64,000 nt of DNA from the NCBI GenBank assembly GCA_030141605.1, contig JAQGDQ010000163.1, positions 124,001 through 188,000 on the forward strand, given 5' to 3'. Origin of the DNA: Tubiluchus corallicola. Lineage: Eukaryota > Animalia > Priapulida. Under the pieces are notes generated by a model. The model ran no database searches and was not told where the DNA came from. It saw only the letters and a list, made by a program, of their open reading frames with translations. The first letter of the stretch is position 1; each line of letters starts with the position of its first letter. Shown piece by piece: positions 24,363 through 27,755 of the stretch. Made by a program: the position numbers and the translations under genes.

Positions 24363-26447
24363 TTAAGTCTTAACTTTTAAATTTGCAAGTCGAGAATCAG
24401 CCATAGACTTGTTGTTTGGAAGCTGAGAGTTGACGTTCTTAAAAGGAATTGCCAACTGGTAGTGGCCATCATCGGTTCTTGTCATTGTCTCCCCCCAGAT
24501 TTCCAGTGCTCTTCTGTCTTGTTTGGAAAATCTGTTGTTGTTATCATAGTCATCATCCCATCTCTCTATTTTCCAGAAGTTTTCCATTTGCATTGACAAA
24601 GTTTCATCCAGGTCGTTTTGGTCCGTTAAAACCTGAGACAGGTTGCACAGTGCAGCATGTGAATAATTTCCGCCCCCTATGGGCCCACGTAAAGACCAAC
24701 CTAAGCCTGTCCTGACAGCATAGGGTGCTGAAAGCGATGGGCCTTGTCTGACTTCCAAGGGTATCATTGCCTCTGGTACATCTTGACCAATAATTAACAT
24801 AACTTCGCCTGAACGAGGAGTGGAAAGTGGTAAATCTTCCAGGTGAGCCCACTTGATGATGTCTGCTTCTCTAAATCCAGAATCAGAAAAGTTTGAAAAA
24901 TCTTCCAATGCGTATACTCTGTGAAGTTTCACTGTCTCTCCATTTTCCAAGTGATGTGGAGTGACTTTTAATGCCACCTGAACCACATTTATTTTAGTGT
25001 TCTTATTCACTGTGGAAAGACTGAGCTCAGTGTCTCTACCAGTGAGGTTGAGCATCTTTAGTAGCTTCTTGGTACAAAATGTGCGATTGCTCCCGCCGTC
25101 TAATAAGGCATGAGTTGATACAACTCTTTTGCTGTCTTTACTGCTGACCTTATTAGAGACACAGGGCAAAGCTATATTGTCTTCTTGGTTGCTATCAACT
25201 GTAGCACATGTTGTTGCCTTGTCCTTTAATTGTTGTTCCTCTGAGGTTTGCGTGTTTGTTGGGCTTTGTGACGGTTTCCAGCTTTCTAGAGCCTCGTGAA
25301 GTAAGACCGAGTGTTTTCGTTTGCAGTTTGGTTTGGTGCATCCACGAAGAAGACAGTAAATAGCTCTGTGGTTTCCATATCCCAAACAGTTGAAACAAAG
25401 ATACCTTTTCTTTGCGAAGTTCAATCTGGCTTCATTTGTCATGCTCTTAAATTTCTCGCACTTTCGTAAATGATGATTCTCTGAGCATAAACTACACTGT
25501 TTAGGTGCAACTTTATTCAAAGTATGTTCAAAACTCTTAACATTTGAGTCTTGGTTCCCTGACTCTGTCGCTTGAGCTGCAAAACCTTTTACTGTGCACC
25601 TCTTTTCCTGTATGCTCTCTTCTTTGATCTGTATTATGCTCTGTAATTTGCCTCTTCTTTGATTGATTAGTCAAGCAATTTCATCAGCTGCTTGTTGAAC
25701 AAAGCTTACAACATCATGTACATCTGGATTTCTTCCTTCACTCCTTCCAATTTTAGCTACTAGTGTCTGCCACCGACTCTGGTGTTTAAAGGGCAACAAC
25801 TTTATTATTTGTAATAGGTTGCTTTGAGTGTTAATTTCATTCAGGCAATTTATTGAAGCCAAAGTGTCTGTACAGTCACTTAGTAAATCAGCAAAGTTTT
25901 GTAGCTTTTCTCCTTCACGGGGCATTATGCTTCCAAAGCTGCTTATTTTTCTTAACCATGCTTGTGTGACGACATAAGGCTGACCAAAACGTTGTCTGAG
26001 TAGATCTTTGGCGTACTGATCAGCTATTTCATGGCTCATGTAATTACATCTTTCAATCAATTGTTTTTCCTTTCCAGTACATAGTTGTAACAGTCGGGTA
26101 AATCTGGCTGTTTCATCCTGTGCATATTTTTCTACTGTCTCCTCTAGACGATTCATAAACCTCCAAAATTGTAAAGGGTTTCCGTCAAATGTTTCTACTT
26201 CTGCTTTAGGAAGCTGTAAAGTTTGATATATGTTGTGCTGCTGGACCTGATTCTCCAGCATAAGTTTGGCTATTACAGCCATGTCATCTTGGCCGCTCCG
26301 GTCCTGTGGCGCCACAGTGTGAGCAAATTGTGAAGAAACAGGTGTAGAATGTTTTATTTGAGTTTGCTCTTTTGGATGCACGTGGGGCTTGAATGTAGAC
26401 ACTGAAGCATTTAACTGAGAAGCCTCTTTTACGCGCCTGTCACTGAA
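24363..26447 (-). pseudogene. BEL/Pao Gag core, zinc knuckles and aspartic protease
   Basis: ORFs 25671-26477 and 24363-25520 are in the same frame across one TGA at 25671-25673. Motifs CSLCSENHHLRKC, CFNCLGYGNHRAIYC, CTKPNCKRKHSVLLH and HALLDGGSNRTF. Confidence 0.9.
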
Positions 26448-27175
26448 AGGCAATACATACTGATTATACAATTCCAACTAATGTCTATGATAACATGTTA
26501 TCGGCCCAACTGCCTCATTATTAATATAGTTCCAAGGTTTTCTCTGCCCAATAAAATGAACAATTTTAATATCATTGCAAAAATGTTTGACTGCAGAAAG
26601 GTAGGTATAAGGCAGTTCTGCATGGGCGTTCATAACATTGCAGGTAAATGGCAGGTGTTTGTCCAAGTTTTGGTTCCAATCAGCAAAATATTTATTTAGT
26701 AGCCCCTGGTCCCCGCCATCTGCTTTCTGCCTTTCTGCTTAGCTAAATCTAACTGCTTATAAGTGTTCAAACTAGGTTTAAAAACATAAACTCCAGAATT
26801 GAATTGATCAGGCCACCCTATGTCCGGTGCAGCTGAAAATTCTTCTCTACTAAATAAATCATCAACGTTTTGCAATACCAATGTGTCCGCATCTAGGAAA
26901 ACGCATTTGGAAAACTTGGTCAAACGCCAGCAGTGAAGTTTTGTAAACGTGATGCCGAGTTCTGGTTGACCTAGCAACTGCAGATGAGCGTAATCTTCAC
27001 TGTCGAAAATTTCAACCTTCTCAACATGGTCAAATGCCTGGTGAAGCAGCAGCATCATTCTACTTGAGATGACAACTAATTTGCATGCTGTTTTCGTCTG
27101 CTTCAAGGAATTCGCTAGAACTATGGCACCCAAAGAATACTCATCAGCTGTGGCCAATGTAACATAGGCCTGATC
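26448..27175 (-). pseudogene. GYG1: Captured intronless glycogenin (GT8) catalytic domain within the retrotransposon Gag frame
   Basis: [86 protein letters not shown]; frameshift at ~26725; [13 protein letters not shown]...KHLPF..N...YTYLSAVKHF..IKIVHFIGQRKPWNY; TAG at 26478-26480; LELYNQYVLP. Confidence 0.95.
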
Positions 27176-27755
27176 ATTTATTTCACTTTTTGGAAAATTT
27201 TGCTCAATCCAGTTTTCGACACTAGGAGGCACTGACTTGCCTAACTGAAATAAGCGAGTCCTAGTCTTAGCAGATGAACTACTGCTGCTAACATCTGAAT
27301 TTGCATAATCACATGCTATTTTCCCCCTTTTTATTTTCTGATCTATAAGATGCTGTTTTCTCCTACTACTCAACTGTTTCATCTTAACATTCAAGTCTTG
27401 CATTGTTTTCTTCAAGAGCTGTTCTTCATCATCAAATGCTGATTCTGCCTGCAAAGATTTTTTCTCAAGTTCTAACAATGCTTTGCGAGCCTCTGCCTGT
27501 TGGCGCTTATGCTCGGATGAAGCAGCTGATCTTATTTTGGACCGGCATGATTTAATTTCGGAAGTTGAGACTTGGCTTGCACTACCTGTAGGTGAGGCTT
27601 CCATGTGGGGTGAGAGTGCTGGTTTCACCGTGGACGTCTGAAGCTGATTGCGCCCGACCCTTTTAACTAGATCAGCTTTAGTTCCAGAAACTGTCAACCC
27701 CTTTTGTCTACAAATGTTTCTTAACTGTTCCACAGTAAGACAACTGAATTTATCT
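27176..27755 (-). pseudogene. Gag N-terminus: SAP domain, Ser-rich linker and coiled coil
   Basis: [28 protein letters not shown] fits the SAP consensus (~27655-27745). It is followed by an E/K/Q-rich helix and SVENWIE, continuous in frame with the glycogenin domain in ORF 26696-27733. Confidence 0.85.

Follow-up and report, generated by a model that had tools for sequence, protein, structure and literature searches.

Does the glycogenin-like reading frame in this stretch of DNA belong to the Gag protein of a retrotransposon family, and if it does, has it been kept there for use? We examined the whole stretch, a window of 64,000 nucleotides, together with contigs of runs X1, X2, X3 and X5, the last of which comes from another sample and another study. 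At no point was contig depth taken as copy number.

A glycogenin domain in the Gag of a BEL/Pao element

Judged from its sequence, the minus-strand region at 21878 to 27769 is a decayed copy of a BEL/Pao retrotransposon family, and all of its features named below lie on the minus strand. The Gag frame carries at its N terminus a SAP domain at 27656 to 27739 (PF02037, E 2.2e-9). The Gag capsid core at 25806 to 26189 gave a Pfam match to DUF1759 below the Pfam cut-off (E 8e-4); the matches of this region to BEL Gag proteins were strong, with 149 of the 150 listed representatives (the best 150 of 3895 in the protein search) matching at E 1e-46 to 1e-24. Three Cys/His knuckles of a nucleocapsid were read off the translation at 25290 to 25500, and both capsid and nucleocapsid are therefore present. 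Gag is followed by an aspartic protease at 24756 to 25136 (DUF1758, E 0.014; Asp_protease_2, E 0.004), a reverse transcriptase at 23683 to 24330 (RVT_1, E 0.015 over 23683 to 24021), the Pao Peptidase_A17 of the RNase H region at 23115 to 23579 (E 1.8e-41), and an integrase core with DUF5641 at 22164 to 23114 (rve, E 2.8e-6; DUF5641, E 7.5e-31). This is the BEL/Pao order of protease, reverse transcriptase, RNase H and integrase with Pao-type domains, the protease and reverse transcriptase matches being weak and the frames being broken from the reverse transcriptase on.

A polypurine tract at 22133 to 22142 precedes the 3′ LTR, as in BEL/Pao elements. The LTR itself (255 bp, TG...CA, 21878 to 22132) was delimited by self-search and by the loose ends of X1, X2 and X3 contigs, which accumulate at both of its borders. 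Self-search found no second (5′) LTR within the 64-kb window. The window copy thus has a 3′ LTR only; in X5, the LTR border and the 5′ region are found joined in one contig, and relative to an X5 contig about 900 nt are absent from the window at 23131.

In X1 and X2 the bin holding the LTR (21878 to 22132) was about 90 to 180 times as deep as the flank, and loose ends were numerous at each border; this high depth reflects many related or solo LTRs and is no copy number. At the place expected for the 5′ end and 5′ LTR there lie six copies of a 69-bp unit and one adjoining inverted copy (27796 to 28311), with raised depth in X2 and X3. They may be another repeat that truncated the 5′ end of the element.

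Some features elsewhere in the window were noted as well. By eye, two overlapping ORFs at 6255 to 7228 (plus strand) resemble a GT11 fucosyltransferase with a frameshift, ORFs at 4704 to 6108 (minus) and 9071 to 11307 (plus) resemble broken reverse transcriptases of non-LTR retrotransposons, and an exon at 56129 to 56524 (plus) resembles a gene of the adiponectin-receptor (PAQR) family. A perfect 186-bp tandem duplication at 60781 to 61152 is possibly an assembly artefact.

The captured domain, an intronless glycogenin catalytic domain of the GT8 family, occupies 26448 to 27175. The ORF at 26696 to 27769 reads from the SAP domain into it, its last 164 amino acids matching the PDB sequence of human glycogenin-1 (E 7e-55); the ORF at 26478 to 26738 matches the C-terminal half of glycogenins whose structures are solved, from human and rabbit (E 3e-16 to 3e-14). 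These PDB sequence matches settle the glycogenin fold of the insert, which also matches in Pfam and aligns with animal glycogenins at 45 to 61% identity, with two short in-frame gaps in the window copy relative to PDB glycogenin. Past a stop codon at 26478 to 26480 the Gag frame resumes, reading in the same frame into Gag and then into the protease. The original prediction had put an intronless glycogenin catalytic domain between a SAP/coiled-coil N terminus and the Gag core with both junctions in frame, and the ORFs, the PDB matches and a Gag profile all bear it out.

The profile in question, built from the "SxSQV + coiled coil" segment of 21 Gag relatives, scored 16.5 bits upstream of GT8, at 27377 to 27595, and none of 500 shuffles reached this (best, 11.9). 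Since Gag segments match on both sides, GT8 is an insert in the linker of a BEL Gag and not an adjoining host gene. Neither of the added domains is usual there: no SAP domain was found in the 30 long Gag relatives scanned and no GT8 in 149 Gag relatives. Directly after GT8, at 26385 to 26414, stands LNASVSTFKP, which we take to resemble the PAM2 motif for poly(A)-binding protein; a strict LNPxAxxFxP-like pattern occurred in 12 of 95 Gag relatives.

The insert begins and ends exactly at the limits of the catalytic domain. In host glycogenins a median of 4 residues precedes the first motif (231 of 240 scored), so the capture begins at the glycogenin N terminus; at the other end, similarity to the aligned animal glycogenins stops at about VLP (26448), where the final helix of the catalytic domain lies. 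The linker and the 34-residue tail that binds glycogen synthase are missing. A profile from 65 host tails gave no positive score in any of the six frames of the window, and it scored 44 to 57 bits on 3 of 5 control proteins. Because this defining tail is missing, the insert is a captured catalytic domain and not a glycogenin gene; the word "complete", previously applied to the domain, holds for its catalytic part and fails for the linker and the synthase-binding tail.

The catalytic residues are kept: the DxD motif (26885 to 26893), the acceptor Tyr (26607 to 26609), which aligns with human Y195 and stands in its YxY context, and the conserved His (26556 to 26558) and Lys (26538 to 26540). In glycogenin catalysis these roles belong to D102, D104, H212 and K218. 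Available accounts of the mimivirus enzyme R707 support the roles of DxD and Lys (PMC9614988), and the acceptor role of Y195 is given in the accessible text of PMC9188544. Three extra residues immediately precede the acceptor Tyr in the element. An ostracod glycogenin model (protein P0337), whose C-terminal half is duplicated, also has three extra residues before its acceptor Tyr, probably by coincidence.

Over the span of this domain, glycogenin loci in animal genomes were split into more than two pieces in 20 of 80 cases (the best 80 of 142). The insert is continuous where the animal loci are intron-split, which points to its having come from an mRNA, in keeping with the mRNA-type capture inside Gag that had been proposed.

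The insert in other contigs and a diverged copy

An X1 contig of 1525 nt extends over the entire domain and past its two junctions, differing from the window by 4 substitutions in 771 nt; the domain is also covered by two X3 contigs, with 5 substitutions. Three short X1 contigs reach across the N-terminal junction by fewer than 31 letters and were not counted as bridges. In X5 each junction is spanned by a separate contig, that at the N terminus by one of 4264 nt (26592 to 27756) and that at the C terminus, without gaps, by one of 712 nt (25910 to 26621). Contigs from three studies thus cross the domain junctions, and doubt as to whether the junctions would be spanned has been removed. On this ground we rejected assembly error. 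That a host glycogenin and the element were artificially joined, an idea to which the window-specific frameshift near 26722 lends something, can be dismissed given these contigs and an insert that lacks introns.

The frameshift (26716 to 26730) and the in-frame stop were found where they had been placed by the original prediction, the frameshift proving peculiar to the window sequence. The near-identical X1 and X3 contigs share the stop and lack the frameshift, X1 having a deletion of its own; the frameshift in the window may represent either an allelic difference or a misassembly. Diverged copies lack the stop, and X5 has neither break.

The X5 copy is about 12% diverged from the window copy. 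In its 4264-nt contig, 624 nt separate the SAP end from the LTR border, beyond which lies the integrase, and because the contig ties these together it places GT8 inside the LTR-bounded unit. This contig is circularly permuted (5′ internal region, LTR border, 3′ internal region); it may stem from young copies collapsed into one, from two copies in tandem, or from a circle with a single LTR. Another X5 contig, of 639 nt, matches just 26852 to 26908 (48 of 57 letters) and may be a host glycogenin gene or another family.

Divergence between X5 and window was 10.0 to 11.5% in GT8, 12.1 to 14.9% in pol and 8.1 to 13.4% in Gag. That in GT8 was not above that in pol (Fisher p 0.18), and similar divergence of the three is expected under common descent. 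The net lengths of X5 indels cancel the frame offsets of the window at all three frameshifted places, and the extra piece of about 900 nt is also in frame. This suggests an intact X5 copy, as seen in part of the codons: the X5 pieces are separate contigs, perhaps of different copies, the listed pieces leave 25620 to 25726 uncovered, and a 2-letter gap lies somewhere within 22119 to 23133.

Both the X5 and the window copies retain the full length of the domain. Derivatives in which it is partly or wholly lost also occur, with joints at 26400 to 26570 (X2) and from 26484 to the LTR (X3). It had been proposed that the insert belongs to the family, as against being lacking from its other copies, and the X5 copy carries it; we regard the capture of glycogenin as very probably a feature of the family and not a one-off event.

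An alternative with little probability left to it is that a single retrocopy inserted into an element already dead, and that the two were afterwards duplicated together. The window copy is indeed dead, and the fusion was not found in other organisms. Such an origin sits badly with two junctions that are both in frame and at domain borders, with an insert and a pol that have diverged equally between the copies, with X5 pieces from which the tested breaks are absent, and with the excess of silent changes described below.

Apparent constraint on the domain and its possible use

The comparison of X5 with the window yielded 93 rows of differences, of which 40 were shown and 30 used; those left out of the 40 were six X5 rows and two others at breaks and two absent from X5. 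In the continuously listed zone of GT8 there were 12 silent and 12 replacing changes (pN/pS 0.23 to 0.37; binomial p 0.0006 to 0.013), and over all 30 rows 14 silent and 16 replacing (pN/pS 0.30 to 0.45; p 0.001 to 0.023), with a corrected replacing-to-silent ratio of 0.26 for the continuous zone. The 20 rows in pol were similar (8 silent, 12 replacing). We read this as a sign of purifying selection on GT8, from one small pairwise sample. The dN/dS below 1 that had been predicted for GT8 thus appears as such a sign, in the 12 silent and 12 replacing changes of one pair of copies. Fifteen codons encode different amino acids in the two copies; the X5 residue is closer to the host glycogenins at 7 of them and the window residue at 8, and since host-likeness splits in this way, the replacements are not just decay of the window copy.

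Against 71 host glycogenins, the window copy keeps 73 of 79 invariant columns (nematode glycogenins keep 72 and 74), and its mean identity at variable columns is 18%. In a quick tree the insert has a branch of 1.23 against a median of 0.2, a long-branch join from which no donor lineage was read. The long branch and the six changed invariant columns fit relaxed constraint; a fast host lineage could also be a cause of the long branch.

Our preferred reading, to which we give a probability of about 0.5, is that this family has a Gag with a glycogenin domain caught long ago from an mRNA and kept as an enzyme that would glucosylate its own Tyr on Gag. The sequence evidence tips slightly towards an active enzyme in the captured domain; self-glucosylation of Gag is a more tentative proposal, and a benefit through tethering to glycogen is doubtful. 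That the family is autonomous with its own Gag glycosyltransferase, its sugar-primed particles joining germline glycogen particles in a case of cytosolic capsid self-glycosylation, is a speculative extension.

Glycogenin works as a dimer, and N-terminal extensions of Gag should face outward. In the sequence of events that we propose, two template switches during reverse transcription would have captured a glycogenin mRNA, and a single polyprotein of SAP-coiled coil, glycogenin, capsid and Pol would be translated. Assembly of Gag would raise the local concentration of the domain and let domains pair, and the paired domains would add short alpha-1,4-glucose primers from UDP-glucose. Lacking the synthase tail, the domain would reach synthase solely by pairing with host glycogenin, and otherwise its chains would remain short; we therefore favour short primer chains over a glycogen coat. 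The least certain step is the benefit: Gag or its particles might be tethered to glycogen-rich germline cytoplasm, or masked. Template switching is an established route by which LTR elements capture mRNA, according to the available part of PMC5131818. As described in the accessible text of PMC9188544, glycogenin self-glucosylates a Tyr to make a primer of 8 to 12 residues, and its C-terminal 34 residues recruit synthase.

A domain that lies in frame upstream of Gag-Pol is selected to stay open and folded even without catalytic use. The most serious competitor to an enzymatic role, though clearly less probable than it, is a folded passenger, captured once and carried in frame upstream of Gag-Pol, kept open and folded with no catalytic role. 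The long branch, the change at 6 of 79 invariant columns, the moderate pN/pS of 0.23 to 0.45 and the occurrence of deletion derivatives would all suit it. It is less easily squared with the retention of every catalytic motif while variable columns drifted to 18% identity, with full domain length in both copies, and with borders that coincide exactly with those of the catalytic domain.

A little less probable again is a binding module or decoy that pairs with host glycogenin, binds glycogen or UDP-glucose, or glucosylates another target, with no self-glucosylation. The missing synthase-binding tail and the three extra residues right before the acceptor Tyr would agree with this, and mimivirus R707 offers a precedent of an enzyme that is active yet, in the available account, not self-glucosylating (PMC9614988). 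Against it, the element retains the acceptor Tyr within its YxY context, and the 45 to 61% identity to animal glycogenins is far over the 26% of R707.

Relation to known systems and meaning

The element shares with Belpaoviridae an LTR (255 bp here), the polypurine tract, the order Gag, protease, reverse transcriptase, RNase H and integrase, Peptidase_A17 and DUF5641; the SAP and glycogenin domains inside Gag set it apart. The Belpaoviridae profile lists env as the sole extra gene (PMC8742986). Flanking LTRs of 0.2 to 1.2 kb and a primer-binding site for tRNA-Arg or tRNA-Gly are given as BEL/Pao features in the available texts (PMC8742986; de la Chaux and Wagner 2011, PMC3118150). With the animal glycogenins GYG1 and GYG2 (GT8; PDB 3t7m, 1ll2) it shares the catalytic domain, DxD, acceptor Tyr, His and Lys, but its domain, unlike the protein outlined in the accessible part of Marr et al. 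2022 (PMC9188544), has no introns, linker or 34-residue tail and is fused in Gag.

LTR-mediated retrocopies, including maize Bs1 (Tan et al. 2016, PMC5131818, as far as the available text goes), likewise are partial intronless mRNA copies inside an LTR element that are recopied, and with animal loci as reference such a copy is present here. Those retrocopies are described in the same text as young non-autonomous chimeras, whereas the present element retains every pol domain and has its insert within Gag. As to non-autonomous behaviour, all pol domains are present and the X5 indel lengths fit an open frame in the part of the codons seen. A further feature of retrocopies in that text is that the mRNA and the element share microsimilarity where the template switches (PMC5131818). 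Crocodilian endogenous retroviruses with KIT-ligand and nectin3 also show a host mRNA captured by a reverse-transcribing element and purifying selection, but in the available account these are separate ORFs of ligand and adhesion proteins in retroviruses, not an enzyme domain in Gag (PMC4299795). Mimivirus R707 is a virus-borne glycogenin-like glucosyltransferase proposed to modify virion proteins; according to the accessible text it differs in that a giant DNA virus encodes it as a gene of its own; its identity to glycogenin is 26%, and it keeps the Tyr yet does not self-glucosylate (PMC9614988).

Searches for the fusion elsewhere gave nothing. There was no glycogenin-Gag fusion among the best 120 of 392 longer protein matches (plain glycogenins by Pfam, coverage and BLAST against Gag/Pol) or the best 120 of 1328 near-length matches (plain glycogenins by Pfam and coverage), and 482 long protein candidates gave one match and no fusion. 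GT8 was present in one of the best 150 of 3895 representatives, a plain ostracod glycogenin and no fusion. Neither Gag nor Pol was found at any of 80 metagenome glycogenin loci (the best 80 of 142), no relatives were found in viral contigs, and the Atlas had nothing at a value of at least 0.9. No description of a glycogenin-Gag fusion was found in the open-access literature; the family may be present, without annotation, in Repbase or another repeat library. LTR elements are known to take up host genes; we found no account of one with a glycosyltransferase as part of its Gag.

Although retroelements capture host mRNA often, the captures described are mostly young, disabling or in separate ORFs. 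A metabolic enzyme domain that is kept in Gag, cut at domain borders and constrained implies use. If the domain is active, it would link the particle biology of a retrotransposon to glycogen metabolism and would be a rare case of cytosolic capsid glycosylation by an element's own enzyme. As a natural tail-less glycogenin, it also provides a way to study which roles the catalytic domain may have independently of glycogen synthase.
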